Source: Candidatus Undinarchaeota archaeon (GTDB taxonomy: Archaea; SpSt-1190; JASMDC01). Taken from it: a stretch of 64,000 bases of DNA. The translations under genes and the position numbers were made by a program. The stretch's first letter is position 1, and each line of letters starts with the position of its first letter. This document shows, piece after piece, positions 12,325-38,612 of the stretch. The stretch is from the NCBI GenBank assembly GCA_964519305.1, contig CAZFHY010000009.1, forward strand, positions 22,229 to 86,228. The letters run 5' to 3'. A model generated the notes under the pieces. It saw only the letters and a program-made list of their open reading frames with translations, was not told the DNA's origin and did no database searches.

Positions 12325-15300
12325 TCAGTCCCGCCGACGGCCCAAGTAAGCTCCTGCTAGCGCGAGAAGTGTCAGCGACTCAACTACACCCACACCAGGC
12401 GCGGTAACCAGATCGGAACCACCCGTGGAGCCTGACAGGACCACGAGGTTGACGGTGAGAGGTTCTGCGCGTATCTCTTGCGGAACGGTGGCCATCGCCT
12501 CGATAACGAGGCTCGTGGTCCCGACCTTGCCCGCGATTATCGGGATCTGGATGACGCGCTGTTCGCCCTTGGCCAGCTTGTACGTGCACGTCTTGACCCC
12601 TACGTTCTCACCACAGTCAAGGACGACGTTGGTGGTGGCCGAGCCTGAGACGGTGAGCGTCACCGCTATCTCGCCCTCGTAGGGGTTCTGGATGTACACA
12701 GGGTAGAGGTGCATCGCACCCACGGTGAGCGCGAGCGACTTGGGCTGGCCCTCCGGATCGAAGAACGGCAGGTCGTCGACGCACATGGCCCTTAGCGGTG
12801 ACCAGAACCATCCTGACCGGCAGCAACGGCCGACGGCAGTGATGCAGTTGCCTGTGACGCACTCCCAGTTGTACCGACAGGTGCCGATCCGGTATCCGCC
12901 CACCTTCAGGTTCACCTTGAAGGGTATGTTCTGGACCACATCGCGACACTCTGCACCGCTCTCCAGGTCGGGATCGCCCTTACACACGGTCGATGTGATC
13001 TTCACGGTGAAGTCAGTGGGACCCGATACAGGCAGGACCACGTACTTAGAGGCACGGGGTTGGAGTGTCAGGTTGTAGTACACACCGTCCGAGATAGTCA
13101 GCGGCTTGCCTGCCGCGTTGATGACCTGTATAGACACGGGCATCTTGAAGTCCGTGGGGTTCTTGATGAACACCGGCACATCGATGATCTCGCCGGGACC
13201 AGTGGTTATCACGTTGGCCTTCACGTCCTTGGACCGGTCGCACTCGGCCTTGGACTGCTTGCACGCTTCAGAGCTCTCGTCCTCGAAGCAGGCATCGGAG
13301 AAGCACGCGTCCGAGATGGTCGCTTCGAACCCGCCGACGGTGATCGGGATCTTGTTGACCACCTTGTTGGCGAACGTACCATCGCCCACCTGGTTCTTGC
13401 TCTCCACGATGAGCTCGCCCTTCACGGGTCCGCTCACCGGGATGCGCACGATCTTGGTGGTCCGCGCCTCCACGTGGCAGCCGCCGATGGAGGACATGTC
13501 GAGGTCGTTGGAGATCTTCGTGCCATCGTCCTTCTCGTACGCGAACGAGATGGCGCACTCCATCTCCGAGTCGGCGGTGTTGGACACCACGGCCTCGATG
13601 TAGTCCTTGCCGATAGCGGCCTGCTGGATCATCTGGGTGTTCTGGAAGAACACGCCCTGGCTCTCGCCTTCTTGCACGCCCACAGTCTCGCCTGTGGCGA
13701 GCTTGGCGGTGACGAACACCGTCACCTCGCCAACGTTCTCCAGCGCGGCCTCGAGGTCGGCAGGTGCCGTCGGGCACTCACCGGCAACGCAGTGCGCGAT
13801 GCGCACCTTGATGTAGTAGGTCGCGATGCCCTCGCTGGTCACGTTGAACACGTACTGGTTGTCCGTCTCGGCACCAAGGTCCTTGGGCGGATCGGGTAGG
13901 GTCTTGATCGGTGCGTGGTCTGCGTCAAAGATCTCGACCTTAAGGCCGAGCGGATAGGACAGGCGGTTGTCGATACCGTAGTACCGGTTAAGCGTGGTCT
14001 GGGCGTCCTCGAGCGTGTACGTCAGTTCGTCAACGTTCAGCGCGCAAGCATCGTTCTCGCACGTAACGATGAACGCGAGGTTCGCCACGAGCTGTGCCTT
14101 GGCCTCGTCATCTGTCAGGTCATCTTCCGTGACCTCACCTATCTCGATGTCCGTTTCAACGGACGTGGTGATCCACGAGTCGTAGTAGATTAGCTGTGCG
14201 CCAGCGAACACGGCGTACTTGATCTGTAGGTCGGTGATCGAGGTCACTGTGAACTCGACGATCCTCGACTCTCCGGGAGCTATGCCGGAGAGCATTATGG
14301 ATGCCAGCGTCTTGACACCGGTGGAAACGTTGACCTCTACTGAGACCGTGCTGCCGAGCTGGTTGGTGACCTTCAGGTACTTCTTTTTGACCTGGTCGAT
14401 GTTGGTACGCATGCTCAGCACGGGCGGTGGTGAGATACCATCGAGCACGAACTCAGCGTCCGGGACGATACCTTCCACATCGGTGACGTCGGTGAGGCTT
14501 GTCTGTGCCTCGGGAACGGGCGGTAGTGGTGTGTAGCAGTCCGCGGGGCACTTGTTGGGACCGGTCTTCTCGTCCTCCTGACATACACCATCGGGGCAGG
14601 AGGCATCGAGGCAGTCGGCACAGTCGGGGCCCTCGCCCTTCGCGGGCTCGCACTCCCCGTCATTATCGCACGACTCGCACACTCCACAGTCGGACGGGCA
14701 GTTCTCGCAGCTCTCGCCCTGGATCATGTCGCAGACAAGGGTGCCCGTGATCGGGTCGGGGACACCGCACATGTCCGGCAACTGACAATCGTCAGGTGCG
14801 TTCTGCCAGCTCTCCCAATAGTCACAGAAGCCGTCAGCGCACACCGTCTGATCACCGGCCTGCTCGCCGGTCAGACCGCAGCAGTCGGCGGGGCACGTGT
14901 CCGTGGTCTCGCCGCGCTCGGATTGGCAGTTGTGGTCGCCGCAGACGTAGATCGGCGCAAGGCAGTCGCGCGGTAGCGGATCTAGACCCAGCTCGATTAT
15001 ATCGCACACATCGTTGTCCTGACACTCCTGAGGACAGTCCCCGTCGGTCAATGGATCGCACGCACCGTTGTCGCACGTGACCGGGCATGGGCCGCAGTCG
15101 TTGTCGTGGTCGGTGCAGTCCTCGCCCACCTCGCATCCGTTGGCGTCGGGGATGTGGCGTACGACCTCGCACTCCTCGCAGATACCGCAGTTGGCCGCGC
15201 CCCCGCTGACGGTGCAGCACTCGTTGTAGAGGCACTCCGAGATGGGACCGCAATGGCCGGGGAAGCACGGTGATGGACCGCTGGCCAGCGGTTCCATGCA

Positions 15301-18300
15301 CAGCCCGCCATCGTCGGGCGAACAGTAGCCTTCTATGGAGGAATCGTCCTTGAAGAGCCGGCAGTCCGAGCCCGCGCCCAGCCAGCTGATGGTGATCTCC
15401 TTTGTCTCGAATGATCCCTGGGCGTCACGGTCCACCTGCTTGCAGTAGCGTTTTTCGGTGTCACCGGGCAGGGTCCGCGTGTGCGTGTCATCGTCGTAGC
15501 TCGAGCAATCGCACAGGTCCACGTACTTGAACTTCAGGGTGAAGCCGCGGTTGAACGAAGATTGCATGAACTGCCAGGTGTTGCACTCGACCTGGTACAC
15601 GAGGATGCGGTTCTGTCCGGGCCGCAGGGTGTTGGAGACCAGCGGTTCGGCCGAGAGCGTGCAGAAGTTGGACTTCCAGCTGGGATCGGGCTCGTCGTTC
15701 CCGAGATATAGCTGGTTCTCCCGCGGGTCGTAGTTTAGGATGTAGTCGTAGAGGTCGAAGCCGTTCTTGAGGTAGGCGATACCGTCCCCCACGTTGGTGA
15801 GCACTACCCTGATCTTCTGCACAGGCGAGCAGTGGGGCCATTCGTCATACCCGTCCGGTATGGCCGTGGTCACCGTGGCGCTGGACACGACGACGTCGGC
15901 GGAGCGCCATATACCTGTTTGTCGGGTACCCTTGTGCTCGTCGAGCGCGTTGAAGAGCCGCAGTTCGTACTTGGGCCGGGTCATCTGGTCGGGGCCGAAC
16001 GACTCCGTGGGCGTGAAGCTGCAGTCACCCTCGCACGAGGTGGCACCCTCGCCACAGGTACCTGTGGTGATCTGGCATTCCGGTGATGCGCCATCGTACT
16101 CGAACACCTTGTCATCATGATCATCGCCATGACGCAGGGATATCTTGCGCAGCTCGGTGGTGCACTGGCTCGTGAACCTGAAATAGAGCGGATCGCCCTT
16201 GGCGGGGCAGATGTTCAGGTCGAGGTCCACGGGCGGATCGTAGATGGCGATCTGGGGTTTCTGGATCTTGATGTAGAACTCCCCGCACTCGCACCGCTCC
16301 TCGTCGAACGCACAGGTAGTTGGATCGCACGTGATGCTCCCGTCCTCGTCAACGTCCCGGGCTATGAGTATCTTGTGCTGGCCGAAGGGCGTCGATTCGG
16401 GAATCCGGATGGAACAGGTAGCGTCCTTCCTGTACTCCTTTCCCGTGCCAGCGTTACAGGTGCCAAGCTTGCGATCGTCGGCGATGCGGTCCAGGTACAC
16501 GACAGCCTCGGGGCTCGAGCAGGTCACGGTGTAGGAGAAGGTGATGGTCGCTCCCGGGCACAGCTCGGTGATGGGGGGTGCTTCGGTTAGCGTGATCTGG
16601 GGGTCCGCCACTTCGAACCCGAGGTCGGCCTGGCCCATCCGCCAGCCGTCGGCGCCCTTTGCAGAGTTGCACGAACCGAACTTGCAGATGCTGCTCAGAC
16701 CGCTGTCGGAGTACTGGTTGCACCCCCAGGCCCTGTCGCCCTCGCCACCGCAGTCGGGGCACACGAAGTTGCCCTGCGTGTCACAGACACGGGTGGCGGT
16801 GTCCACGTAGATGGTGTAGACACCGGGTGCTCTGGGCCCGAGGTATGTCTTCCCGGTATTGGCCCGGTAGTCGATGTCGTTCCCGGGCGCGTGACCGTAG
16901 CGTCGCCAGACATCGCATGTCTGTCCGTCCGATGCACGCAGGTAGGCGATGGCACCGGGGCTCGAGAGGACCGAGTTGCACGAACTGTCCTTGCACAGCA
17001 TGCACTTACTCGTGGAGAGGTAGTTCTCGGACTTACCGCCCATGTCGATGATAGGCGACTTGTGCGGATCGCACACGGGATTGGACCCGGCGTAATTGAT
17101 ATCACCACACCTCGAGATGCGACCATAGGAGTTGAACGAACCGGTGTTGCGTGCACCGTTCGAGCACACGAGGTTGTACTGGCTCACGGTGACGTAGAAC
17201 TGTAGCGCGTCACCCGGACAGATCTGGTTGCCTGTCCGGTCCGGGTCGATATCCACGTTTATAGCACCGGAGTAGGAGATACCTGTGCTCTGAGTGGCCC
17301 CGACGCTGTGGGTGCAATGTGAACCGGCACAGGTGGCGCCGAGGTTCACCTTGCAGTTACCGTTCTTGCACGTGAACGTCTCATCGGCGTTCTGTCCGGC
17401 GAGCCTGAGCTTCACGGCCTGTGAGCCCGTGGTGGTCTTGGGATTGATGGCAAGACGACACCAGGGGTCCGGGTCCTGTTGTATCGTGGAACCCCCGTTC
17501 TCGAGCGACGTGGGTCCCGGACACGTACCTTGGAGCTTGTCCCCCAAGATCACGTCGAAGTAGGTGCCGGGCGGGTAGCACCGGCTCGCGATATGGAGGT
17601 AGAGCGATGCCGACAGACAGGTGCTGTCAGGGAACACGTACAAATCGATTCCCTTCTGGGCGATATCGAGGGTGACGCTGTCCGAGTCCTCGTAGTACAT
17701 CCCGGACTGGGGCGCTTTTGCGACGATGTTGACCGATGTCTTGCTGAAGTCCGAGGGGAGCTTGAGCTCGACGTACCCGAAGGCGTCCGGGGTCTGGGTC
17801 GCACCTATCTGCAGGTCACCGTCGAACATCTTGACGGCCACATGATTGCTACGGACGACGCCCTGACCCCATTCATCGATGACGCGGACCTTGAACCTCA
17901 CACCTGTGCATCCGCTCGGTGGAAGCTCGGTGACGGTCAACTTGCTGACAAGCTTCAGATCGGTGATGGCCGTGGAGTAACCGTTCTTGAAGGCCACGAT
18001 CTCAAGGTCGCCCACGAAGTAGGCCATGTCGATGATCGCTTCTGCGGCGGAGTCCCAGGTGAACCTGCCTGTAGCGTCCGTGGTCCCTTGGGTCATGATC
18101 GTCTTGGTCTCGGCGTCACGCACCTCGATGTTCGCTTCCGGGACCGGGTCGTTGGAACTGGTCACAACGAAACTGACTGTGCTCTCCGGGTGGATGCTGT
18201 TCACCTCCTGGTCGGAAACGTCAAGGATCTTGACGTCGATGATAGGGATGTCGATGGGGATGAACTGCTCCATCTCCTGGAACGCGCCGAGCTCGTCCTT

Positions 18301-19206
18301 GGCGAAGGCGACAAGGCGGTAGTTGCCGTAGTCGACGTTGTGCAGTTCGCACTCCATGGCGTCACCGTCAACAGAGCACTGATCGATTTTCCCTCCTTCC
18401 GGGTTGTAGAGCGCCAACGTCTTTTCCACGATCTCGTCATCCTCGGGATCGTTCCAAGTGATCGCTATGTCGAACTTCGTTATGGTGTCACCGCCCGAAG
18501 GGATGGTGTGGACCTCGATGCTCGCATCAGCGGCACGGGGGTGGAAGTTGGTGATGGCCAGGCGAGCACCTGTGCTGTCCCACTCATCCTCGCCCGAGTC
18601 GATGAAGATACCGCAGCCCAGGATAGGTGTTCCCAACGGATCGAACCGGAAGTAGAGGAAGTCGTTGTCGATCCGGTCGATGGTCGCCTCGATCCGGTGA
18701 TCGGCCATGGTCATCTCGCATGTATTGGTTATGGCCTCTGACCCGCGGAACTCGAACCATTCGTCACCGTTCTCCGGATCACAGTCCAATGTAGGGTAGT
18801 ATGTATCGCTCGAGCAGAGGGCTACTCGGTACTCGGGAGGTGCCTCACAGTTGGTGGAAGCATAGTACCACAGCTCTGCTTTGTGATTACTGTAAGCCGT
18901 CGTGTTGAACAGCACTCGGACGTACTTGGGGTTCTGGGAAGGATCGTGATGCTGTGGTTCGTTTGTGATGCATGCCTCGTTGCGTGTGAACCGCTTCCAG
19001 AGACAGGGATCATCCTCCTCACCTGAAGCGACAGCGCAGGCCGCGTCGATGATTGCATTGGTCACATTGTCGTCCTCACCGCTCTCGATGAGGACTATGA
19101 GCGTATCCTTTGAGCGGGCCTCACCTCCTTCCCCTACTGCCGGCAGCAGCACGAGAGCCAGGAACACGCATGTAATGAACAGGGCATCTTTTCGATCTAT
19201 CGACAT
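12325..19206 (-). CDS. giant (2293 aa) cell-surface protein with many beta-sandwich domains, an acidic Cys-rich module, and a PGF-CTERM-like anchor
   Basis: Uninterrupted 6.9-kb ORF. Signal peptide ALFITCVFLALVLLPAVGEG. SD ggggaggtag and a TATA upstream. C-terminus 'APGVGVVESLTLLALAGAYLGRRRD'. Confidence 0.85.
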   Translation of the reverse strand: MSIDRKDALFITCVFLALVLLPAVGEGGEARSKDTLIVLIESGEDDNVTNAIIDAACAVASGEEDDPCLWKRFTRNEACITNEPQHHDPSQNPKYVRVLFNTTAYSNHKAELWYYASTNCEAPPEYRVALCSSDTYYPTLDCDPENGDEWFEFRGSEAITNTCEMTMADHRIEATIDRIDNDFLYFRFDPLGTPILGCGIFIDSGEDEWDSTGARLAITNFHPRAADASIEVHTIPSGGDTITKFDIAITWNDPEDDEIVEKTLALYNPEGGKIDQCSVDGDAMECELHNVDYGNYRLVAFAKDELGAFQEMEQFIPIDIPIIDVKILDVSDQEVNSIHPESTVSFVVTSSNDPVPEANIEVRDAETKTIMTQGTTDATGRFTWDSAAEAIIDMAYFVGDLEIVAFKNGYSTAITDLKLVSKLTVTELPPSGCTGVRFKVRVIDEWGQGVVRSNHVAVKMFDGDLQIGATQTPDAFGYVELKLPSDFSKTSVNIVAKAPQSGMYYEDSDSVTLDIAQKGIDLYVFPDSTCLSASLYLHIASRCYPPGTYFDVILGDKLQGTCPGPTSLENGGSTIQQDPDPWCRLAINPKTTTGSQAVKLRLAGQNADETFTCKNGNCKVNLGATCAGSHCTHSVGATQSTGISYSGAINVDIDPDRTGNQICPGDALQFYVTVSQYNLVCSNGARNTGSFNSYGRISRCGDINYAGSNPVCDPHKSPIIDMGGKSENYLSTSKCMLCKDSSCNSVLSSPGAIAYLRASDGQTCDVWRRYGHAPGNDIDYRANTGKTYLGPRAPGVYTIYVDTATRVCDTQGNFVCPDCGGEGDRAWGCNQYSDSGLSSICKFGSCNSAKGADGWRMGQADLGFEVADPQITLTEAPPITELCPGATITFSYTVTCSSPEAVVYLDRIADDRKLGTCNAGTGKEYRKDATCSIRIPESTPFGQHKILIARDVDEDGSITCDPTTCAFDEERCECGEFYIKIQKPQIAIYDPPVDLDLNICPAKGDPLYFRFTSQCTTELRKISLRHGDDHDDKVFEYDGASPECQITTGTCGEGATSCEGDCSFTPTESFGPDQMTRPKYELRLFNALDEHKGTRQTGIWRSADVVVSSATVTTAIPDGYDEWPHCSPVQKIRVVLTNVGDGIAYLKNGFDLYDYILNYDPRENQLYLGNDEPDPSWKSNFCTLSAEPLVSNTLRPGQNRILVYQVECNTWQFMQSSFNRGFTLKFKYVDLCDCSSYDDDTHTRTLPGDTEKRYCKQVDRDAQGSFETKEITISWLGAGSDCRLFKDDSSIEGYCSPDDGGLCMEPLASGPSPCFPGHCGPISECLYNECCTVSGGAANCGICEECEVVRHIPDANGCEVGEDCTDHDNDCGPCPVTCDNGACDPLTDGDCPQECQDNDVCDIIELGLDPLPRDCLAPIYVCGDHNCQSERGETTDTCPADCCGLTGEQAGDQTVCADGFCDYWESWQNAPDDCQLPDMCGVPDPITGTLVCDMIQGESCENCPSDCGVCESCDNDGECEPAKGEGPDCADCLDASCPDGVCQEDEKTGPNKCPADCYTPLPPVPEAQTSLTDVTDVEGIVPDAEFVLDGISPPPVLSMRTNIDQVKKKYLKVTNQLGSTVSVEVNVSTGVKTLASIMLSGIAPGESRIVEFTVTSITDLQIKYAVFAGAQLIYYDSWITTSVETDIEIGEVTEDDLTDDEAKAQLVANLAFIVTCENDACALNVDELTYTLEDAQTTLNRYYGIDNRLSYPLGLKVEIFDADHAPIKTLPDPPKDLGAETDNQYVFNVTSEGIATYYIKVRIAHCVAGECPTAPADLEAALENVGEVTVFVTAKLATGETVGVQEGESQGVFFQNTQMIQQAAIGKDYIEAVVSNTADSEMECAISFAYEKDDGTKISNDLDMSSIGGCHVEARTTKIVRIPVSGPVKGELIVESKNQVGDGTFANKVVNKIPITVGGFEATISDACFSDACFEDESSEACKQSKAECDRSKDVKANVITTGPGEIIDVPVFIKNPTDFKMPVSIQVINAAGKPLTISDGVYYNLTLQPRASKYVVLPVSGPTDFTVKITSTVCKGDPDLESGAECRDVVQNIPFKVNLKVGGYRIGTCRYNWECVTGNCITAVGRCCRSGWFWSPLRAMCVDDLPFFDPEGQPKSLALTVGAMHLYPVYIQNPYEGEIAVTLTVSGSATTNVVLDCGENVGVKTCTYKLAKGEQRVIQIPIIAGKVGTTSLVIEAMATVPQEIRAEPLTVNLVVLSGSTGGSDLVTAPGVGVVESLTLLALAGAYLGRRRD

Positions 19207-29579: not shown

Positions 29580-30134
29580 TCAATCCCCTGACAGTGCATC
29601 GACTATCCCTGACGGTGAGCTCAATACACTGATGCCCATCATCGTATCCAGCTGCCGGGCGTTCGCTACGTCCACGGGGCGCATGGTGAGCGTTCCTGTC
29701 CGTCCCCCTGGCAGTGCCGTTATGACCTTACCTTCCTCGATGTCCGTGGGGAGCATGGTGATCGTTGCACCGCACTTGATGGCCTGTGCAACAAGATTGG
29801 GGACAAGGGTGTCCGCGATACCGCAGACGACCTTCGCCACGGTGTTCGCTGAGGCGGGAGCGACCAGAAAGGCCGCGTACACGCCCTTGTACAGATCACT
29901 GAGGAGCTTTGCCTGATTGGGCCCGTTCTCGATGACAGGTGCGGAGAACGCACCCTCGTCCAGACGATCCGTGAGCCCGTACATCCGAACCACCCGGGCG
30001 CCCTCGGCCGATAATACGGGCTGGACAATGGTCCCTTCGACGCTCACGTCCTCCATGGCCTCGAACGTAGCTTCGAGATGATGACCGGCGCCGGTGATCG
30101 CCCAGAGGATCCGTCGTGGATTGACAGGTGACAT
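29580..30134 (-). CDS. flavoprotein of the PF02441 type (archaeoflavoprotein AfpA/UbiX-like)
   Basis: 'RILWAITGAGHHL' and 'LVAPASANTVAKVVCGIADTL' are typical of the homo-oligomeric flavoprotein fold. The start abuts the upstream stop (TGAATG). Confidence 0.55.
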   Translation of the reverse strand: MSPVNPRRILWAITGAGHHLEATFEAMEDVSVEGTIVQPVLSAEGARVVRMYGLTDRLDEGAFSAPVIENGPNQAKLLSDLYKGVYAAFLVAPASANTVAKVVCGIADTLVPNLVAQAIKCGATITMLPTDIEEGKVITALPGGRTGTLTMRPVDVANARQLDTMMGISVLSSPSGIVDALSGD

Positions 30135-30425
30135 TCAGATCATCCAGTCCTCGAGCACTTCGAGCACGAGGGCCTTCAGTTCACGAGGATCGTGCTCCCC
30201 TGGCTTCAATTCGTCCAAGGTTTCGGCCAGCGTGTGATCACCGATCACTTCCCGTACCCAGCTGGCCACGTCATTGCAGTCGGGCCTGATGTGGAAAAGC
30301 AGCCCCTCTGGAGCCATTCCCAAGATGATCCAGTGCAGGTCCATGATGTCGCGGGCGACACCCTCTACACGATCCTCGGACGACTTGACGATGAACTCGG
30401 ATCCGTCGGGTGCGGAGGGCATCAT
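30135..30425 (-). CDS. hypothetical acidic 96-aa protein co-transcribed with the flavoprotein
   Basis: The ORF abuts the downstream gene. A TATA-like ataaatag on the minus strand lies about 35 nt upstream (30456-30466). Confidence 0.5.
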   Translation of the reverse strand: MMPSAPDGSEFIVKSSEDRVEGVARDIMDLHWIILGMAPEGLLFHIRPDCNDVASWVREVIGDHTLAETLDELKPGEHDPRELKALVLEVLEDWMI

Positions 30426-30532
30426 CGGGGTTCCCTGCCACGTTTTCCGAGGTAAAGCTATTTATGTGGACTGGTCGGGCCGGGCCCTGTGTCTCCATAA
30501 CCGTTATAATGCTCTGTGACGATAGGTAGTAT

Positions 30533-30679
30533 GTGGGCATCACCATCGACCCTGACGATCCACGATTCAAGAAGAAGCGTACACTTCGCCCCGAGGACGT
30601 AGAGGACATCGCCCTGGAGCGTCGCGAGGTCGACCTTCCTTCAACACAGCGTCCCCGTCGCAGGAAGGATGAGCGCTAG
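30533..30679 (+). CDS. candidate 48-aa basic micro-protein (GTG start)
   Basis: TATA gttataat (30503-30510) is centred about 27 nt upstream of GTG 30533. It encodes VGITIDPDDPRFKKKRTLRPEDVEDIALERREVDLPSTQRPRRRKDER and ends at TAG 30677-30679. Not in the ORF track (too short). Confidence 0.3.
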   Translation: MGITIDPDDPRFKKKRTLRPEDVEDIALERREVDLPSTQRPRRRKDER

Positions 30680-30748
30680 CATCATCGCGCAGAGGGCGGG
30701 CGGGCGTCGCCGATTGATTTAAAACGCTCACCACTCATCCCGCTCCCG

Positions 30749-31234
30749 ATGGTCGCCGTACCACCCGCAGCAGGCCCCCTCATCGCCGCTGTAGGCTGCC
30801 TTGCCCTCGCTCCACGCGCTGCCAGGGGAGAGCGTGTCGAGGCAGGTGATGTGGCCTTCGGCGTGGTCGCGGGCCTGCTCCTGGCCGGCCTTACCGGGAA
30901 TCTGACCACCGCTCTTGCGATGGCTATGTTCGGGGCATTGGCCTGGCCCGTGCTCCTTCTCCTGCTCGAGATGGAGGACGCACGCATCATGCCTGCCCTT
31001 GGAGCGCTCCTGTTCGCCCCGATACCGGTTGACGGCCGTTCACTCCCGGCGTTCACTCTTGTAGCACCCTATGCCCTGCTCGCCGCAATGACGCTGGACA
31101 TGCTGGCCCAGCACGAGGTCTACGTCCCCGGCATCACCGTGGAGGTCGATGGCGGTCCCGACTTCCCGAACTTCGTCAACCTGCCTGCCGTGATCGCCAT
31201 CGCGTGCCTGGCCTGCGCCCTTCTCGTCCGCTGA
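30749..31234 (+). CDS. polytopic membrane protein, function unknown
   Basis: Four to five hydrophobic segments. TATA tttaaaa (30718-30724) is centred 28 nt upstream of the ATG. Confidence 0.6.
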   Translation: MVAVPPAAGPLIAAVGCLALAPRAARGERVEAGDVAFGVVAGLLLAGLTGNLTTALAMAMFGALAWPVLLLLLEMEDARIMPALGALLFAPIPVDGRSLPAFTLVAPYALLAAMTLDMLAQHEVYVPGITVEVDGGPDFPNFVNLPAVIAIACLACALLVR

Positions 31235-31320
31235 TCCCTGCCCCGACCGGCTGCCTTCCCCAAGGATAGGTAGAAAAAGGCCCGCGATGCGCATCGCCTC
31301 TACTGGACGGGTGACCGAGC

Positions 31321-32127
31321 ATGCTCTATGAGAGGATTGTTGATACAGAAAGGCTCGAAGCGGACCTCTACGGCCTGTGCGCTGTGGAGTCCCTCACGAC
31401 CGGCCGTGGCGAGTACATGGCCGACGGCTTCGAGGACATCGGGTTCTCCGTGGAGCGACAGCAGATGATCAACTATCCCCACGAAAATAAGATGATGCAG
31501 GACCTGTGGAACGACGAGAACGTCATCGCTGAGTACAAGGGCGATCCGGGCTCGGACAGGTACCTGTTGGTGATGGGCCACCACGACAAGGTCCCCGAGG
31601 GCAAAGGGGCCAACGACAATGGATCGGGATCGGTCATGCTCCTGGAGCTGGCACGTCAGCTGAGCGAGCGTGGCGAGAAGGTGAACGTGCGGTTCGCGTC
31701 CTACGGTCTGGAGGAGATTGGTCTCGACGGGGCCTCTGTGTACGTCAAATCTCTATCGGACACCGAGCGCGACAACATCATCGCGGCAGTCAATCTGGAC
31801 TGTATCGGTGCCGGCTCGGAGCTCACCCTCACCATGAAGGACCGTCGGAGCGCGACCACCGACTGGGTGAACGACGCCATCAAGCAGAAGGCGGACAGCA
31901 TGGGCATCTCCTACTACGAGCGTGCGTCAATGCGCGGTTCGAGCGACCATGCGGTGACCGCCAACGCCGGCATCCCCACTGCATCGCTCTGCCGACAGGA
32001 GGACGGAAAGATCCCCAACCTCCACTCGAAGGACGACGTGGTCGAGAACATCGACCTCGGACTGCTGACCGAGACCGGTGACCTAGTCTACCACGCGATG
32101 GTCGACATCTATCGGGATAAGAGGTAG
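31321..32127 (+). CDS. M28-family Zn aminopeptidase
   Basis: 'VMGHHDKV', 'GANDNGSGSVMLLELAR', 'YGLEEIGLDGA' and 'GSSDH' match the M28 metal-ligand blocks. Confidence 0.7.
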   Translation: MLYERIVDTERLEADLYGLCAVESLTTGRGEYMADGFEDIGFSVERQQMINYPHENKMMQDLWNDENVIAEYKGDPGSDRYLLVMGHHDKVPEGKGANDNGSGSVMLLELARQLSERGEKVNVRFASYGLEEIGLDGASVYVKSLSDTERDNIIAAVNLDCIGAGSELTLTMKDRRSATTDWVNDAIKQKADSMGISYYERASMRGSSDHAVTANAGIPTASLCRQEDGKIPNLHSKDDVVENIDLGLLTETGDLVYHAMVDIYRDKR

Positions 32128-32132
32128 ATCGA

Positions 32133-32453
32133 CTACTCGCCCTTTGCCTTCTTTACGAGCTCAGCGAGGTTATCCTGCAGGCGCGCAGCCTCTGCCTCGG
32201 CCTTCGCCCTGACCTCTGCGGGAAGTTCTATCTGGGCCTCGAGGACGTCAGCGTACATCCGCGCGACCTTCGCCTTCTGCTCCCTTACGTCGACCTCGAG
32301 GACCACCTCGTGGTCACCGATGGACTTCTTGAGCAGGGTCGTTCCCTTGACCTTGGACGATACGGCCCAGCCGAGGTCCTTGAGCTTACCAAGGAGCGTG
32401 ACCTCCTTAACCTCGCCTGAGACGAGTCCCCCCAACGAAAACGCGTACTTCAT
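32133..32453 (-). CDS. hypothetical 106-aa protein with a C-terminal coiled coil
   Basis: ORF downstream of pnp on the same strand. No family recognised. Confidence 0.45.
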   Translation of the reverse strand: MKYAFSLGGLVSGEVKEVTLLGKLKDLGWAVSSKVKGTTLLKKSIGDHEVVLEVDVREQKAKVARMYADVLEAQIELPAEVRAKAEAEAARLQDNLAELVKKAKGE

Positions 32454-32511
32454 GTGATCACTTGGAGAGTAAGGAGCGGCTCAGACTTTTGTTCCTTTCG
32501 ATTAGGGGACC

Positions 32512-32537
32512 CGCCCCGCGGGAATGCCCGCGGGGCG
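32512..32537 (-). terminator. strong GC hairpin 14 nt downstream of the pnp stop
   Basis: Perfect 11-bp stem cgccccgcggg / cccgcggggcg with a 4-nt loop. No clear oligo-T tract, so the function (terminator or processing/stability element) is uncertain. Confidence 0.4.
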
Positions 32538-32550
32538 ATAGCTGTCTTCC

Positions 32551-34824
32551 CTAGTCTCTGCGGTCGCGGGACCTGCGGTCGCGGTCCCTGCCGCCTCGGC
32601 GGTCACGGCCGCCACCACGGCGGTCGCGGTCACGGCCTCCACTGCGCCGGGGGCGTTCGGGCTCCACCCACCCGGGCGGCGGGGGGTGCAGGGCCTTCAT
32701 GGAGACGTCGACCTTTCCGAAGGCTACCTTGGTCACGACGACCTTCACCGTGTCGCCGAGCTTGACCCGGTCCTCGATCTTGTCCACATGGCCGTACTCC
32801 AGCTCCGAGATGTGGAGCATCCCGTCCTTGCCGGGGATTAGGTTGACGAAGGCGCCGAAGGGCTTGATCGTGACGACCTTGGCCTCCTCGAATATCTCGC
32901 CCACCTGCACCTCGCGAACGATGTCCCTGACGGCCTTCTCGGCCTTTGCGGCCATCTCGGCGTCGTTGGTGGTGATCATCACTGTACCGTCGTCCTCGAT
33001 ATCCATCTGGACGCCGGTCTCATCGGTGATGCTCCGGATCATCTTCCCGCCAGGGCCGATGACCGCGCCGATCTTTTCCGGATCGATCTTTAAGGCAATG
33101 ATACGCGGCGCGTACGCGGACAGCTCCTGCCTCGGCTCGGCGATCGCGCCCTGGATGACGTTAAGGATGAAGTTGTTCGCCATCCTTCCCTGGGTGATCG
33201 CTTCTCGGATGATGGGCATGGAGATACCACGGGTCTTTGTGTCCATCTGGACGGCTGTGACACCGTCACGGGTGGCGGTGATCTTGAAGTCCATACCGCC
33301 GTTCCCATCCTCCATGTCCTGGATGTCCGTGATGACCTTCCAGCGCTCACCGTCGGAAGCAAGCCCGATAGCTATCCCGGCCACGGGCTTCTTGATCGGG
33401 ACACCCGCGTCCAGGAGGGCCAGCGTCGATGCGCATGTGGAGCCCATGGACGAGGAGCCGTTGGAGCTCATGACCTCGGAGACCATCCTGATCGTGTAGG
33501 GGAACTCCTCCAGCGTGGGGAGCACCGGGCGAAGGGCTTTCTCCGCCAGCATGCCATGGCCCTGCTCTCGTCGACCGGCGCCGCGGAGCTTCTTTACCTC
33601 GCCCACGCTGAACGGTGGGAAGTTGTAGTGATGGAAGTACCGCTTCTTGATGTCGTCCTCCATCGACTCCACGATGAGAGTGTCACCGGGGGCACCCAGG
33701 GTGACCACCGATAGAATGTGGGTCTCTCCTCGCTGGAAGAATCCCGTGCCATGGAGGCGAGGGAGCACGGCCACGTCGGCCGCGAGGTGCCGGATATCGG
33801 TAATATTGCGGCCGTCGACGCGCTGTTCGCGGTCCAGGAGAGCCCGGGTGACCTGATCGTCGATGAACTCCTGGAAGCACTTCTTGAGGATGCCCTTGAG
33901 GTAGTCCTTGGCGGCCTCCTCGTCACGCTCCTGGTTGACGTACTCCCTGGCCATCTCGTTGACAACCAGTTCTTTCATCTCTCTCATGATCTCCTTGCGC
34001 TCGCCCTTTGAGCCGCGGGGCTGGTTGAAGACGTAGGTCTGGAGATGCGGGATCATGCGCTCCTTGAGCCGGTCAGCAACGACCTTCTCCTCGGGAGAGA
34101 GCTCGCCCGTGAACTTCAGGTCCTCCTTCTTCGCCTTGGGCTTACCGATCTGCTGGCGGACTTCCTCGATGAAGGCGCACAGCGGCCCGAGGGCACGCAT
34201 GGCCTCTTCGAAGGCGCCGGCCATGACGTCGTCCGGGGCCTCGTTGCAGTCGCACTCCACCATGGTGATGCGGGAGCCGTCACCGGTGACCAGAAGGTCT
34301 ACAATGGACTCCTCGAGCTCCTCCACGGTGGGGTTCACGATGTACCGACCGTCGATGTAACCGATGCGGACACCGGCCACAGGTCCGTCGAATGGGATGC
34401 TGGAGAGGTGGAGGGCCATGCAGCCGCCGATGATGGCAGGGACGTCGGGCTTGTTCGCCTCGTCGAAGGTGAGGGGCATGCAGATGACTTGGACCTCGTT
34501 GCGCATGTTCTGGTCGAAGAGCGGGCGGATACCGCGGTCGATGGAGCGTCCGGTCAGCACAGCGTCGAGGGAAGGTCTGCCTTCCCGCTTGGTGAACCGG
34601 GAGCCTTTGATGCGCCCGCACGCGTAGTATCGCTCTTCGTATTCGACCATGAGAGGGAAGAAGTCCATCCCTTCGCGAGCGGAGGGGGACATGTTCGCTG
34701 AGCAGAGCACTACGGTCTCGCCTAGTTTTATGGTGAGTGCGGCATCGGATTGAGGTCCGTACCTACCTGTCTCGATCGTGAGCGTCTTTCCTGCTACATC
34801 GCAGGTGAATTGTCGAATGTTCAT
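32551..34824 (-). CDS. pnp: polyribonucleotide nucleotidyltransferase (PNPase) with an Arg/Asp/Gly-rich C-terminal tail
   Basis: Two RNase PH domains, KH ('GPGGKMIRSITDETG'), S1 ('VGEIFEEAKVVTIKPFGAFVNL...MLHISEL'), then 'RRSGGRDRDRRGGGRDRRGGRDRDRRSRDRRD'. An archaeal-type TATA (ttttaaat region 34846-34858) lies upstream. Confidence 0.9.
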   Translation of the reverse strand: MNIRQFTCDVAGKTLTIETGRYGPQSDAALTIKLGETVVLCSANMSPSAREGMDFFPLMVEYEERYYACGRIKGSRFTKREGRPSLDAVLTGRSIDRGIRPLFDQNMRNEVQVICMPLTFDEANKPDVPAIIGGCMALHLSSIPFDGPVAGVRIGYIDGRYIVNPTVEELEESIVDLLVTGDGSRITMVECDCNEAPDDVMAGAFEEAMRALGPLCAFIEEVRQQIGKPKAKKEDLKFTGELSPEEKVVADRLKERMIPHLQTYVFNQPRGSKGERKEIMREMKELVVNEMAREYVNQERDEEAAKDYLKGILKKCFQEFIDDQVTRALLDREQRVDGRNITDIRHLAADVAVLPRLHGTGFFQRGETHILSVVTLGAPGDTLIVESMEDDIKKRYFHHYNFPPFSVGEVKKLRGAGRREQGHGMLAEKALRPVLPTLEEFPYTIRMVSEVMSSNGSSSMGSTCASTLALLDAGVPIKKPVAGIAIGLASDGERWKVITDIQDMEDGNGGMDFKITATRDGVTAVQMDTKTRGISMPIIREAITQGRMANNFILNVIQGAIAEPRQELSAYAPRIIALKIDPEKIGAVIGPGGKMIRSITDETGVQMDIEDDGTVMITTNDAEMAAKAEKAVRDIVREVQVGEIFEEAKVVTIKPFGAFVNLIPGKDGMLHISELEYGHVDKIEDRVKLGDTVKVVVTKVAFGKVDVSMKALHPPPPGWVEPERPRRSGGRDRDRRGGGRDRRGGRDRDRRSRDRRD

Positions 34825-34946
34825 GTGGCATTCACTAAAGGGGTATCCTTTTAAATGAGCCGGTCAGGCCTCCGCAGTGGGCCGCGGTATCACGGTTCTT
34901 GCCATGGGAAAGGTATATATAGCGGTCGTGGGGCCGCGCCGACAAG

Positions 34947-35492
34947 GTGACGCTGATGGACATATCCATTGACTATCTGGAGCGCGAGCAGATGAAGGTC
35001 GGACCGAGCGTCGGTATGGGTTTCGGGCCCACATATGGCATCCCACCATCAGGCCCCTTCCACACCAGCGATGTCGTGTTCGACAACAACTACGTCGCAA
35101 GGCAGACCGAGGAGTTCGAGCCCGCCATCGAAGCGTTGGCCGAGCAGTACGCTGCCAAGGACGGTTGTGAGGTCATGGCCTACCACGACCACAGCCATAC
35201 GACGTGGTACAATACCATCGATAAAGAGATGGAACACGTCCACTTCAAGGGCGAGATGGACGACTTCAAGGGCTTCATCGAGGACGCGAAGGCGGCCGGG
35301 TACGGCACGCCCGAGAACGTCCGGGTGAACGCCTCAGTGGTCGACTGGCTCACCCACCCGGTCCAGACCTGGCGCACGAAGCAGGCTGTATCCTCCTACA
35401 TGGAGGAGGTCGGCTCCGAGCTCAAGGTCACAGAGACCGAAGAGGACGTAGGCAACCGACACATCTACAAGCGCGAGATTACGTTCGAATGA
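34947..35492 (+). CDS. hypothetical cytoplasmic protein
   Basis: 181-aa ORF. TATA gtatatata at about 34908-34917. Start is GTG 34947 or ATG 34956. No family recognised. Confidence 0.5.
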   Translation: MTLMDISIDYLEREQMKVGPSVGMGFGPTYGIPPSGPFHTSDVVFDNNYVARQTEEFEPAIEALAEQYAAKDGCEVMAYHDHSHTTWYNTIDKEMEHVHFKGEMDDFKGFIEDAKAAGYGTPENVRVNASVVDWLTHPVQTWRTKQAVSSYMEEVGSELKVTETEEDVGNRHIYKREITFE

Positions 35493-35506
35493 ACTGACCT
35501 CAATCC

Positions 35507-35538
35507 ACGGGGGCGGTCGTTACCGCGGCCGTCCCCGT
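35507..35538 (+). terminator. hairpin followed by a T-rich tract
   Basis: Stem acgggg...ccccgt with an inner gcgg/ccgc helix, followed by tttccttttat, 15 nt after the stop of 34947-35492. Confidence 0.45.
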
Positions 35539-35627
35539 TTCCTTTTATCATGCACTGCGGGAAAAGGCTGTGTATGAATCTCACACTACCGGTGAGGTTG
35601 CTCGTTCCAGATAGGGTGGTCCGCTCG

Positions 35628-36035
35628 TTACCGGACAATACGTGAGTTCTCGGGAGCCATGACGAGCCAGTCCTCGTCGATGCCCGCCATATCGGACCCG
35701 CTGGTGGAGCAGTGCGTCTTGAGGCGGTTGATCGAGCGCTTGAGCTCGGACATGTCCTTCTCGCGCAGTTGCTTGATCTTGACGAGCATGATGGTGTTGC
35801 CCTTCCGGAAGTGCGTGAGGATGGTCTCTGTATCTGCGAAGTCCTCGAGCTGGGACGTACGGATCTGGAGAGCCGAGTCGCCCGAGTCCACGTTCTTGAA
35901 CTTGATCTCGGGGATATCCGAGGTCTTTGAAGCATGAGCATTATGGATATGATGGTACTCGTCGAGGTGTGTGGGTCGTTTGTGCTTGAAGCGCTCCAAC
36001 AGCTTCTCGCCCATTCTGTAGAACCGTTCGACCAT
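35628..36035 (-). CDS. sepF: cell-division protein SepF homolog
   Basis: The C-terminal domain 'LEDFADTETILTHFRKGNTIMLVKIKQLREKDMSELKRSINRLKTHCSTSGSDMAGIDEDWLVMAPEN' fits the SepF/DUF552 pattern. Confidence 0.6.
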   Translation of the reverse strand: MVERFYRMGEKLLERFKHKRPTHLDEYHHIHNAHASKTSDIPEIKFKNVDSGDSALQIRTSQLEDFADTETILTHFRKGNTIMLVKIKQLREKDMSELKRSINRLKTHCSTSGSDMAGIDEDWLVMAPENSRIVR

Positions 36036-36086
36036 AATCTATCCCAAGATGCTGGAGCGGTCTTCCTTTAAATTCCTTCCGCCGAG

Positions 36087-36353
36087 CTATCTTTGGAGCG
36101 TCTCCAGAGTACTGGCGATGTTCCAGATATCGGTCCTTGTGTGCTCTGGCAGGTTCGGATCATTGGAGATATCGTCCAACCGGTTGATTGCCTCGTTCAC
36201 GCGAACGGCCATTGCTCTGTCCTTGCCTACAAGGATGCTCTTTACGTCCTCGGCAGTCTTGCGTATGTTCCGCGGCACCGATCGATCATCGAGTATCTCT
36301 TCGAGTATCTCGCAAACCTGAGAAAGGATGTTTTCAGCGTCCATGTCCCTCAT
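36087..36353 (-). CDS. UPF0147-family small archaeal protein
   Basis: 'SVPRNIRKTAEDV' and 'DISNDPNLPEHTRTDIWNI' match the conserved UPF0147 signature as I recall it. Confidence 0.55.
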   Translation of the reverse strand: MRDMDAENILSQVCEILEEILDDRSVPRNIRKTAEDVKSILVGKDRAMAVRVNEAINRLDDISNDPNLPEHTRTDIWNIASTLETLQR

Positions 36354-37332
36354 CTCCTAGCCTTTCCCTCAGGACCCTCAGGAGGCCCTTGATACCCTCG
36401 TCCATTTCCACCACGCCATTGACGCTGGCAGCGGCATCGTGACCACCACCACTCCCTTGGATGATGGCCTCAATGTTCGCGAGAAGGTCCTTGTAGACGT
36501 GAATCCCAGTGCTTTTTATAAAGGTTTTTCTCGCCCGCGCTGTTATCCGGAACCCCTTCTTCTTCTTGGCACCGACGAAGGCTATGTCGGCACCGAACCT
36601 GATGAGAGCATTGGCCACATCGGCCTCGAAGGAGTTCACCCTCGAGACGGCCACTATCCACGGACCGGTCAAAGTGAGCTCGGCCCGTTGGGCTCCCTTG
36701 AGGATCGCGATCCTCGAGGAGCGATCAGGTTCCAGGTGGATGGCATCGAGCACCTCCTGGTAATCCACGTCGGTCGTGGCCAGGAGCTTGGCCATGTCTC
36801 GGAAGGTGCTGGCCTGTGCCCGTCTGAATGACATTGTGTCCGCGACCATGCCTGCGATCATCGCTGCGGCCGCACGCTTCGTGGGTTCTACGTCCGCTGC
36901 CTCGAAGAGGCGGAACACGAGCTCGCATGCAGACGGAGAGGTGGCGTCCGTCAGGGAAGCATGATAATCGCATGGTCCCGAATAGGGATGATGGTCCACA
37001 ACGACAGGCCGCTTCCATGGGACCAGGGGCGCGAACTGGTCGGGGTTCTGGACGTCCACGAGAACGGGAAGCCCTCCCGGGTTCGGAGGCCTGACCTCGA
37101 ACTCGGCGTCCAGGTAGTCGATGAGCTTACGCGCGGCAACGCTCGCATGCGAACCCGATCCGATCCTCGACGGGATATCGAGCTTTTTCAACAGTTCCTG
37201 GAGCGCTATGCAGGCTCCTGCGGCATCGAGGTCGGCGTTCTGATGAGTGATGAGGAAAGCGCCCTCCCTCGCAGCGGTGAGGGCCTCAAGGACGTTTTGA
37301 ACGTCCTCCCCGGTACCTTTTTTCTCAGGCAA
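36334..37332 (-). CDS. DHH/DHHA1 phosphoesterase (NrnA-like nanoRNase/pAp phosphatase)
   Basis: 'ITHQNADLDAAGA', 'VVVDHHPY' and 'GGGHDAAAS'. Confidence 0.7.
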   Translation of the reverse strand: MPEKKGTGEDVQNVLEALTAAREGAFLITHQNADLDAAGACIALQELLKKLDIPSRIGSGSHASVAARKLIDYLDAEFEVRPPNPGGLPVLVDVQNPDQFAPLVPWKRPVVVDHHPYSGPCDYHASLTDATSPSACELVFRLFEAADVEPTKRAAAAMIAGMVADTMSFRRAQASTFRDMAKLLATTDVDYQEVLDAIHLEPDRSSRIAILKGAQRAELTLTGPWIVAVSRVNSFEADVANALIRFGADIAFVGAKKKKGFRITARARKTFIKSTGIHVYKDLLANIEAIIQGSGGGHDAAASVNGVVEMDEGIKGLLRVLRERLGDEGHGR

Positions 37333-37678
37333 TGGGGCCGGCCGGTCCCTGGAGGAGCTTGGTCACCTTGTCAGAGAGGTCGGTCACCTTCTCGTTGACC
37401 TTCTCCTCCTGACGGGTGAGAGTCTTGATTCGAAGCTCCAGGGTCTCACGCCGGTCGTCCAGTTCCTTTGTCACGTCCTTGGCCTTCATCTTGGCAAGGA
37501 TGGGGCCCACTGCCTTGTACACGTCCTCGTCCTTGACCCCTTCCAGGGATTCAAGGGCGGACATGACATCGGTCAGCTGGGTCTCGATCTGCTGTTTCTG
37601 GATGAGAATTGTCTGTGCCTGCTGCTGATACTGTTGCAGCTGGAGCACCATGTGCTGTGCTTGTGGGGATATGTCCAT
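37325..37678 (-). CDS. pfdB: prefoldin subunit beta
   Basis: Coiled coil-beta hairpin-coiled coil layout. 'QQLQQYQQQAQ', 'VYKAVGPILAKM'. SD AGGTGA 7 nt upstream. Confidence 0.85.
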   Translation of the reverse strand: MDISPQAQHMVLQLQQYQQQAQTILIQKQQIETQLTDVMSALESLEGVKDEDVYKAVGPILAKMKAKDVTKELDDRRETLELRIKTLTRQEEKVNEKVTDLSDKVTKLLQGPAGPIA

Positions 37679-37679
37679 G

Positions 37680-37907
37680 TCAACTCACCTCGTCAACGCT
37701 GAGGATTATCTTAAGCCACCTGCAGGTGGCGTTCATTGCGGCACGAAGTGCAGTCAGATCGTCGGCCTCGATCAATATGTCGTCACCATCGAACCGAGTT
37801 CGTGCTCGCCGCTGCTCGTTAGTTCCTAGAGGCTGCGTCAGCACCGTGCGGACGAGCTCCGGTCGTTCCGTGGTCAGGCGGGCTGTGAAGGGGATAACAG
37901 GAGCCCC
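37680..37907 (-). CDS. pcc1: KEOPS subunit Pcc1-like ORF with an unresolved start
   Basis: The minus-strand frame is open from directly after the rpoP TAG to TGA 37682-37680. It encodes '...PFTARLTTERPELVRTVLTQPLG...DILIEADDLTALRAAMNATCRWLKIILSVDEVS', a Pcc1-like 'A.D..ALRA..N...RW' signature. There is no ATG/GTG/TTG before GTG 37844. Not in the ORF track. Confidence 0.5.
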   Translation of the reverse strand, partial: GAPVIPFTARLTTERPELVRTVLTQPLGTNEQRRARTRFDGDDILIEADDLTALRAAMNATCRWLKIILSVDEVS

Positions 37908-38045
37908 CTACTGGCACAGCACCGACTTGATGACCCGAGGTCGAGCCTTGGCCAGGATCTTATAGCCGCAGAACGGGCATCTGATCCGGCGCATCTCCGA
38001 GGTCGAAGGGTCGATCGTACGCTTGCACTTGAGACAGACGAACAC
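37908..38045 (-). CDS. rpoP: DNA-directed RNA polymerase subunit P (Rpo12)
   Basis: 45-aa zinc ribbon 'VFVCLKCKRT...RCPFCGYKILAKARP'. GTG 38045 lies 9 nt downstream of GGAGG. The longer track ORF overlaps rpl37ae. Confidence 0.75.
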   Translation of the reverse strand: MFVCLKCKRTIDPSTSEMRRIRCPFCGYKILAKARPRVIKSVLCQ

Positions 38046-38050
38046 CCGGT

Positions 38051-38275
38051 TCACCTCCGCCTCGTGGATGGAGCGTAAGCGCCTCCAGCGATCTTGACGC
38101 CACACTTGGTACAGGACCAGAGTCCTGCGTTGGCGCGCTTCAGCTTCGGAGCCTTGCACTGGGGGCAGACATGGAACGCGCGGGAACTGTTCTCTACCTT
38201 CGCCACCATCCTGCGGACCCTCTTACCGTAGCGGCAGCCGAAACGGCCGGCGCTTCCTACTTTCTTTGTTGCCAT
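38051..38275 (-). CDS. rpl37ae: ribosomal protein L37Ae (eL43)
   Basis: 'GSAGRFGCRYGKRVR' and the zinc ribbon 'CPQC...CTKCG'. Confidence 0.9.
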   Translation of the reverse strand: MATKKVGSAGRFGCRYGKRVRRMVAKVENSSRAFHVCPQCKAPKLKRANAGLWSCTKCGVKIAGGAYAPSTRRR

Positions 38276-38302
38276 GATGATCGCCTGTTGTCGTGATGTG
38301 AA

Positions 38303-38380
38303 TGGTGGGGCCGCCGAGATTTGAACTCAGGTCACTACCACCCCAAGGTAGGAGGATAGACCAAGCTACCCTACGGCCCC
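38303..38380 (-). tRNA. tRNA-Pro (anticodon GGG), CCA encoded
   Basis: The hand-folded cloverleaf has acceptor GGGGCCG/CGGCCCC, anticodon arm CTACC-TTGGGGT-GGTAG and T arm CTGAG-TTCAAAT-CTCGG. It ends with discriminator A plus CCA. Confidence 0.85.
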
Positions 38381-38414
38381 TTGATCACGTCTTGTGTGTA
38401 CCCTCCACCTCCTA

Positions 38415-38612
38415 TTAGGCCCTCTTGTACCGCGCGATCTCGCTCACGAGATCGATCTGCGAGAGGAGCATGCGCCTACAGCAGTATCGCATGACGTTCA
38501 GGTCGTTGAGCACCGTTTCGGGGTGCTCACCCGCGGCTATGCGGCTCTGGTACGTATCGAAGTGCTCAGAGACGGGTGCACCACAGGTAAAGCATCGTAC
38601 GGGGATAATCAT
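38415..38612 (-). CDS. rpoN: DNA-directed RNA polymerase subunit N (Rpo10)
   Basis: 'MIIPVRCFTCGAPV...MRYCCRRMLLS' is the canonical RpoN zinc-bundle sequence. The longer track ORF is discounted. Confidence 0.9.
   Translation of the reverse strand: MIIPVRCFTCGAPVSEHFDTYQSRIAAGEHPETVLNDLNVMRYCCRRMLLSQIDLVSEIARYKRA

Follow-up and report, generated by a model that had tools for sequence, protein, structure and literature searches.

How does a complete bacterial-type polynucleotide phosphorylase (PNPase) come to be encoded in an archaeal genome, and what might it do there? Reviews of 2017 and 2025 describe PNPase as absent from Archaea, and our literature searches found no paper describing an archaeal PNPase. 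The gene in question, pnp, lies on the minus strand of a 64,000-nt stretch of DNA (contig CAZFHY010000009.1, positions 22,229 to 86,228; hereafter the window) deposited as a Candidatus Undinarchaeota archaeon. A preliminary description of this stretch had presented pnp as an archaeal oddity, an old horizontal acquisition to which an Arg-rich tail was possibly added. With a probability of about 0.8, we read it as a PNPase gene that functions in its archaeal host and is fully domesticated there. The gene and the domains of its product are as follows.

32551 to 34824, minus strand: pnp coding sequence, PNPase of 757 amino acids (TIGR03591, Pfam domains, catalytic motifs)
34120 to 34824, minus strand: RNase PH-like domain 1, residues ~1-235, channel loop FTKREGRP (Pfam RNase_PH and RNase_PH_C; aligned to E. 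coli 75-86; AlphaFold2 secondary structure)
33835 to 34119, minus strand: all-alpha linker domain, residues ~236-330 (weak PF03726 match; modelled helices 244-332; indel analysis)
33145 to 33834, minus strand: RNase PH-like domain 2, catalytic, residues ~331-560, motifs GRREQGHG, SNGSSSM and EDGNGGMDFK (Pfam RNase_PH 344-476)
32917 to 33105, minus strand: KH domain, residues ~574-636, GPGG (GXXG) loop (Pfam KH_1; alignment)
32692 to 32910, minus strand: S1 domain, residues ~639-711, FGAFV...HIS patch (Pfam S1; alignment)
32554 to 32691, minus strand: disordered Arg-rich tail, residues 712-757, a PPPPGWVE linker followed by RGG/RD repeats (sequence, model confidence, homolog comparison, Tandem Repeats Finder)

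The window protein scores 817.1 bits against TIGR03591, the NCBIfam PNPase equivalog (cutoff 525; residues 10-711 match model positions 2-688/689), and 813 bits against NF008805 (cutoff 471). Pfam finds two RNase_PH, two RNase_PH_C, one KH_1 and one S1 domain, which together with an AlphaFold2 model give the order PH1, alpha-helical, PH2, KH and S1 in a single chain. The monomer model, made with 121 homologs as input, has a predicted local distance difference test score (pLDDT) of 90.7 and a predicted template modelling score (pTM) of 0.85. The closest solved structures are bacterial PNPases (best 5YJJ, 623 bits), and Foldseek aligns the model to bacterial PNPases with template modelling (TM) scores of 0.79-0.94 (0.79-0.81 for full-length E. 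coli PNPase). The complete bacterial-type domain order read in the preliminary description is thus borne out. Bacterial PNPases (TIGR03591/PRK11824; Staphylococcus 5YJJ, E. coli 7OGK/3GCM, Caulobacter 4AIM) are collinear with the window protein over the full length, with the same five domains, 37-42% identity and signature motifs common to both. Relative to E. coli, the signature residues are all kept (R398/R399, S437-S439, D486/D492/K494; the KH GXXG loop; the S1 aromatic patch), and the corresponding motifs (FTKREGRP, RRExGHG, SNGSSSM, EDxxGxMDFK, GPGG, FGAFV...HIS) reach at least 90% conservation within the archaeal clade described below.

Two related families were considered and rejected. 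The actinobacterial GpsI model (pppGpp synthetase I / PNPase, TIGR02696) gives 591 bits, below its cutoff of 1107. The model of Rrp41, a free-standing exosome ring subunit that has one RNase PH domain in ~240 aa, gives 83 bits against a cutoff of 318.7 (TIGR02065), and this match is confined to the PH2 domain of the 757-aa chain.

The DNA around the gene is archaeal. The window encodes TFB (62984-63943), the ribosomal proteins L18e, L13, S9, L37ae and S8e, RpoN, prefoldin beta, NAC, UPF0147, SepF, PAN, an archaeal RecJ, DUF2114, Lsm and a Pcc1-like open reading frame (ORF). As first described, pnp sits among core archaeal genes (SepF, prefoldin beta, L37ae, S9, L13, L18e, TFB and PAN), and the archaeal nature of the genome is confirmed by TFB, L37ae, RpoN, prefoldin beta, PAN, Lsm and a transfer RNA gene with a presumed intron. 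The latter, an Rfam match of 132 nt (61853-61984, minus strand) that ARAGORN missed, is a further archaeal hallmark.

The association of gene and flanks is reproducible. Among independent marine metagenome assemblies of ENA and JGI, at least 24 contigs (28 index blocks) carry an identical PNPase with unchanged neighbours throughout, and four independent single-run assemblies contain positions 30000-38500 in one piece with 0 differences and 0 joints. The GC content of pnp is 0.623 and 0.83 at third codon positions (GC3), and, for a gene this long, its codon usage lies at a typical distance from that of the remaining window. The ratio of nonsynonymous to synonymous substitution rates (dN/dS) relative to the pnp of the closest relative (95% identical PNPase) is 0.094; the gene is under strong purifying selection. 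The concordant contigs, the native codon usage and the low dN/dS together exclude chimerism and recent acquisition, so that the acquisition is old and the gene fully ameliorated.

The signals that flank pnp are listed next, together with the ORF downstream.

34848 to 34865, minus strand: predicted archaeal promoter core GACCGGCTCATTTAAAAG, a B recognition element (BRE)-like element plus TATA box (sequence, conservation, matching native promoters)
32512 to 32537, minus strand: perfect GC hairpin, stem of 11 bp and loop of 4 nt, 14 nt 3' of the pnp stop codon
32133 to 32453, minus strand: 106-aa coiled-coil ORF, 97 nt downstream of pnp on the same strand, annotated as a gene on every identical contig

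The centre of a TTTAAAA box (34849-34855) lies ~28 nt 5' of the pnp ATG, and no Shine-Dalgarno sequence was found upstream of this ATG. Sequence and spacing fit the archaeal pattern of an AT-rich TATA box ~25-30 nt before the transcription start with a purine-rich BRE ahead of it. The 18-mer and its spacing to the ATG are unchanged at a second locus (L090) whose PNPase is only 69% identical, and boxes of the ATTTAAAA type precede native window genes, with centres at -26.5 to -28.5 (those for a 161-aa protein, HAD, PAN, RecJ and GDSL). Since box and spacing are shared with both, pnp appears to use an ordinary host promoter at leaderless spacing, in agreement with the preliminary description, and the position of the TATA box implies a leaderless or near-leaderless mRNA. 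Unlike bacterial pnp genes, this archaeal gene has a predicted TATA promoter and neither an rpsO-pnp operon nor a bacterial 5' leader.

The hairpin, also noted earlier and present as then described (CGCCCCGCGGG-CATT-CCCGCGGGGCG), is the sole perfect hairpin with a stem of at least 9 bp in the 64-kb window. The 71-nt region around it has a folding energy of -36.1 kcal/mol (z = -4.1), and a 9-bp core of the stem is kept in L007, the locus of the 95% relative, though neighbouring intergenic bases differ. It does not qualify as a bacterial intrinsic (Rho-independent) terminator, as the sequence after the stem (GGGTCCCCTAATCGAAAGG) contains no T-run, nor as a repeated genomic element, being the single such hairpin in 64 kb. 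Family searches gave no significant match for the 106-aa ORF, which is possibly co-transcribed with pnp; in a promoter census of the window it has no TATA-like box of its own, and the hairpin may therefore be intercistronic.

We searched 5.8 billion proteins for homologs. Clustering at 90% identity divides archaeal PNPases into at least 120 clusters, most of which bear a Thermoplasmatota label; more than 100 homolog clusters are 54-62% identical to the window protein, and the named ones are PNPases of Thermoplasmata, Thermoplasmatota or Proteinoplasmatales metagenome-assembled genomes (MAGs). Three homologs lie on closed chromosomes of 3.6-5.2 Mb, adjoining Topo VI-A, Nop56 and NMD3, and the gene on a contig of the SG8-5 type adjoins PolD DP2. 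A single-protein scan of genome contigs, which has an 8-mer-pattern bias, returned 3 archaeal loci only, and we judge the distribution from the protein searches. Archaeal PNPase is widespread and already so named by the NCBI pipeline; the gene is not the oddity it had been taken for. The preliminary description had also considered that PNPase might be common and vertically inherited in the clade. It is common in a large archaeal clade; we found no conserved synteny around pnp across this clade in the loci compared, and synteny is therefore unusable as an argument for vertical descent. One PNPase labelled '[Eubacterium] cellulosolvens' (P0051, locus L091) is on a contig whose gene content is archaeal (a KaiC-like ATPase with archaeal DUFs, a DUF35/thiolase pair and an ADP-forming acetyl-CoA synthetase), probably a contaminant in a bacterial assembly.

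A search of 1.84 billion representatives for non-archaeal relatives gave best matches of 45-51% identity which, where named, are from Uhrbacteria or Patescibacteria; a pattern scan of species-representative genomes agrees. We built a neighbour-joining tree from simple distances (250 sequences, a core of 674 columns, 100 bootstraps, rooted on E. coli), as the preliminary description had proposed. The 46 archaeal PNPases form one clade with a bootstrap of 100 and 0 bacterial sequences inside. This clade is sister to 45 Uhrbacteria-like sequences (bootstrap 59), with other Patescibacteria as the next shells. Within it, the window lineage (3 sequences, bootstrap 100) is sister to the other 43 archaeal sequences (bootstrap 64).

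Two insertions support the relationship to the sister group independently of the tree. The window protein differs from bacterial PNPases by four short insertions in the alpha domain and a 1-aa deletion in S1. Every archaeal and every sister-group sequence has one of the insertions (269-270); another (234-238) occurs in every archaeal sequence and in 62% of those of the sister group but rarely elsewhere; the remaining two (297-300 and 307-310) and the S1 deletion are specific to archaea. In most bacterial relatives, including most of the Uhrbacteria-type Patescibacteria, pnp directly follows the gene for S15 (rpsO), an arrangement that is common in bacteria though not one by which the protein family is defined; a bacterial-type S15 gene is near pnp at 0 archaeal loci. 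An origin of the archaeal PNPase in Patescibacteria is the best-supported reading of these sequences, and they support a horizontal acquisition long ago of a gene now domesticated in archaea.

Within the sister group, labels of 'uncultured Gammaproteobacteria bacterium', which come from third-party-annotation MAGs, look wrong. Of the flanking genes at these loci that have a match, 123/124 favour the flanks of named Patescibacteria, mostly Uhrbacteria.

L008, L009, L012, L029-L033, L037-L044, L051, L052: loci with a doubtful 'Gammaproteobacteria' label (flank-gene matches)

Unlike E. coli PNPase, the window PNPase carries a 46-aa Arg-rich disordered tail. It ends in ...PRRSGGRDRDRRGGGRDRRGGRDRDRRSRDRRD, letter for letter the RGG/RD-repeat C-terminus first reported. 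Residues 725-757 have pLDDT below 50 and are predicted to be disordered; the tail contains an RGG/RG cluster (RRGGGRDRRGGRD) and has 17 Arg and 8 Gly in 45 aa, and the net charge is +9 over 49 aa counted from residue 709. The underlying DNA contains imperfect 15- and 21-nt repeats, and the tail of the 95% relative differs by one indel and an earlier stop codon; read from these sequences, the tail evolves through in-frame repeat changes.

In 107/121 archaeal homologs the tail is 25 aa or longer and its Arg content 20% or higher, and 80/121 contain RGG or GGR. Long R/G/P-rich disordered tails are also carried by 41/45 members of the Uhrbacteria-like sister group and by roughly half of the bacterial relatives outside it, as in a Chloroflexota PNPase ending in ...SGGSRGGGRSRDGGDRRRRD. 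Archaeal tails are the most Arg-rich (25% vs 14-18% in bacteria), and those of Patescibacteria contain more Pro and less Arg (14%). Between S1 and the tail, 26/46 archaeal sequences have a PEGY(V)E motif, which a few Patescibacteria share. Given the tails of the sister group and other bacterial relatives, the tail therefore arrived together with the gene, and the earlier suggestion that it was added in archaea is not upheld.

Basic disordered RNA-binding extensions, such as RGG/RG motifs and the Arg-rich stretches in the C-terminal half of RNase E, are familiar on RNA decay machines. The window tail resembles them in being a low-complexity, Arg/Gly-rich, predicted disordered segment on an RNA-degrading enzyme, and differs in being less basic than a pure RGG box because of its alternating RD repeats. 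R/G/P-rich PNPase tails are widespread in Patescibacteria and Chloroflexota (bacterial loci among L010-L085, for example L063 and L068), and we know of no study of them. In a subgroup of Thermoplasmatota PNPases (P0003-P0007, P0010; locus L086, 12239-12463) a second, duplicated S1 domain follows the Arg-rich segment, making the "tail" an internal linker.

These observations suggest the following history. The PNPase gene and its tail would have passed once from a Patescibacteria-like bacterium to an archaeon and then spread vertically through much of Thermoplasmatota, with at least one crossing between archaeal phyla, or ancestry to both, accounting for its presence in a marine lineage labelled as DPANN. 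The rpsO-pnp linkage of bacteria is gone, and a predicted BRE/TATA promoter of the host type precedes the gene. By homology, a homotrimeric ring would thread the 3' ends of single-stranded RNA through a KH/S1 portal and degrade them phosphorolytically in the 3'-5' direction to nucleoside diphosphates, the reverse reaction adding heteropolymeric tails. The enzyme would thereby do the job usual for the archaeal Rrp41/Rrp42/Rrp4 exosome. The three disordered Arg-rich tails of a trimer would most likely act as non-specific RNA-capturing arms, with condensate formation or partner binding as possible alternatives, and the GC hairpin would most likely stabilise RNA at a 3' end or between cistrons by blocking 3'-5' exonucleases rather than serve as a terminator. 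In its full form, in which a core RNA-decay machine derived from episymbiotic Patescibacteria (Candidate Phyla Radiation) spread through Thermoplasmatota into a marine DPANN-like lineage, replacing the Rrp41/Rrp42 exosome or being redundant with it, we regard this history as tentative and rather unlikely to hold in every part.

Whether PNPase has taken over the function of the Rrp41/Rrp42/Rrp4 exosome, both in the window lineage and in those Thermoplasmatota that carry PNPase, turns first on a gene group ~3 kb from pnp.

37325 to 38275, minus strand: L37ae, RpoP-like ORF, Pcc1-like ORF and prefoldin beta (gene calls plus Pfam)

Koonin et al. (2001) reportedly described L37ae-RpoP-Pcc1-prefoldin beta as the half of the classical archaeal exosome superoperon that lies downstream. 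Two of these genes are uncalled on public contigs: the Pcc1-like ORF (37680-37844, minus strand; PF09341, 24.7 bits, cutoff 20.9) and an RpoP-like zinc ribbon (~37908-38050, minus strand; PF03604, 16.6 bits, below cutoff). In the superoperon the exosome genes have the order rrp4-rrp41-rrp42. Here this half is present, and upstream of L37ae are tRNA-Pro and rpoN, not rrp4-rrp41-rrp42. No second RNase PH gene was found in the window (tblastn), in its 10-kb extensions (~84 kb in total) or in ~130 kb of flanks from related archaea. A homology search with L37ae toward the superoperon region of closed PNPase-bearing genomes gave 4 matches. The archaeal exosome (an Rrp41/Rrp42 ring with an Rrp4/Csl4/DnaG cap) shares the fold family, the chemistry, an S1/KH cap and heteropolymeric tailing with PNPase; unlike its subunits, the window PNPase is one polypeptide, is phylogenetically bacterial and falls far below the Rrp41 threshold (83 vs 319 bits).

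Displacement also has a precedent, in that haloarchaea without an exosome rely for RNA decay on RNase R, likewise a bacterial-type 3'-5' exoribonuclease, although RNase R belongs to the hydrolytic RNR family and to other lineages, in which the lack of an exosome is demonstrated. Against displacement stand the ~84 kb of genome covered, for which the missing rrp genes are suggestive only, the variability of archaeal gene order, and the published Undinarchaeota, which encode Rrp4/41/42 without Csl4 (Dombrowski et al. 2020, where PNPase is unmentioned; the files searched among the supplementary tables have no entry for PNPase, K00962, COG1185 or Rrp41). We regard displacement as a genuine possibility, though not as the outcome we would expect.

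The second alternative concerns the host. The closest species-representative genome, ETNP3_MAG_31 (JASMDC01), is labelled Candidatus Undinarchaeales, with a PNPase 95% and an L37ae 99% identical to those of the window. Labelled relatives of TFB (58-62% identity) are from Aenigmatarchaeota, Altiarchaeota, Undinarchaeales, Woesearchaeota, Micrarchaeota and Nanoarchaeia, and only one is from Thermoplasmatota; TFB is a weakly discriminating taxonomic marker, with 58-68% identity to many phyla. By these sequences the host appears DPANN-like. The GC content of the window is ~60%, and marine Undinarchaeales as described have genomes of ~0.62 Mb and 40-42% GC, so that the host is at best a divergent member. 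The host could represent a marine lineage of high GC content, as yet undescribed, that is present in oxygen-minimum-zone metagenomes.

If instead the host were really affiliated with Thermoplasmatota and the MAG label wrong, PNPase would be vertical in Thermoplasmatota and no transfer between phyla would be needed. This would fit the labelled PNPase relatives, all of which are Thermoplasmatota, as well as the GC content, and there is a precedent in the marine Undinarchaeales fosmids formerly confused with Marine Group (MG) II/III. The window PNPase lineage is moreover sister to the Thermoplasmatota sequences and not nested within them. The labelled TFB relatives, DPANN except for one, argue the other way, as does the submitter's Undinarchaeales label of the closest MAG, reached via both PNPase and L37ae. 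Marine Undinarchaeales and MG-III Thermoplasmatota may have exchanged genes, as noted earlier (Dombrowski et al. 2020). We consider a Thermoplasmatota host doubtful, if a serious contender.

It is very improbable that Archaea as a whole, or a deep group among them, inherited PNPase from their ancestor and that the transfer ran towards Patescibacteria. The monophyly of the archaeal clade and its sister relationship to one Patescibacteria subgroup only would suit this direction, but rpsO-linked PNPase is spread across bacterial phyla, the archaeal clade lies within successive Patescibacteria shells when the tree is rooted on E. coli, and the reviews record no PNPase in cultured archaea. An assembly or binning artefact that fused a bacterial pnp to archaeal DNA, however well it would suit the bacterial nature of the nearest non-archaeal relatives and the unreliable MAG labels of this area, has a negligible chance in view of the same gene and archaeal flanks on all the contigs above, the single-run assemblies that span both junctions without difference, the native composition and codon usage, the predicted archaeal promoter and the homologs in closed archaeal chromosomes.

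Several points weigh against the reading of a functional, domesticated archaeal PNPase with the history proposed here. The placement of the host is uncertain, its TFB having mostly DPANN kin at 58-68% identity and its GC content departing from that of Undinarchaeales. PNPase activity and the trimer are predicted from homology, and the roles of tail and hairpin are proposals. The tree is a neighbour-joining tree on simple distances in which the sister node has a bootstrap of 59 and deeper nodes are weak. The hairpin was not found in L090, the 69% relative. Finally, RNA from the pnp locus was absent from 4 metatranscriptomes of the same studies (6 runs listed, 4 mapped to the locus), libraries that are small and uninformative.

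Other genes of the window deserve brief mention. Homologs of MtrH (8510-9436) and MtrA (9430-10077) adjoin DUF2114 (7309-8505) on the minus strand, with no other sign of methanogenesis in the window. Giant ORFs of 2293 aa and 3676 aa without a Pfam domain (window 12325-19206, minus strand, and L094 1-335) possibly encode surface proteins. A nucleotidyltransferase of 344-359 aa with an NTP_transf_2 domain (56406-57485, minus strand) matches no specific family and is short for a typical archaeal CCA-adding enzyme. A DHH protein neighbouring pnp was considered as a co-transferred NrnA nanoRNase and rejected, the matches being weak (22 bits vs a cutoff of 350).

The PNPase family and its database annotations are already known. 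The new element lies in recognising that archaea possess a large PNPase clade, that it probably originated in Patescibacteria and that a marine lineage labelled as DPANN belongs to its carriers. A large, monophyletic and evidently functional archaeal clade that includes closed genomes contradicts the PNPase-free Archaea of the reviews. It records the probable passage of an informational-type gene out of Patescibacteria into archaea and later from one archaeal phylum to another, and offers a natural experiment on the interchangeability of PNPase and exosome, on the rewiring of a bacterial RNase to archaeal transcription signals and on the role of Arg-rich tails. If the proposed history holds in its full form, a whole archaeal radiation would run bacterial-style 3'-5' RNA decay and tailing, and a self-contained Arg-rich RNA-capture tail would stand in for the partners that a degradosome or an exosome cap provides.

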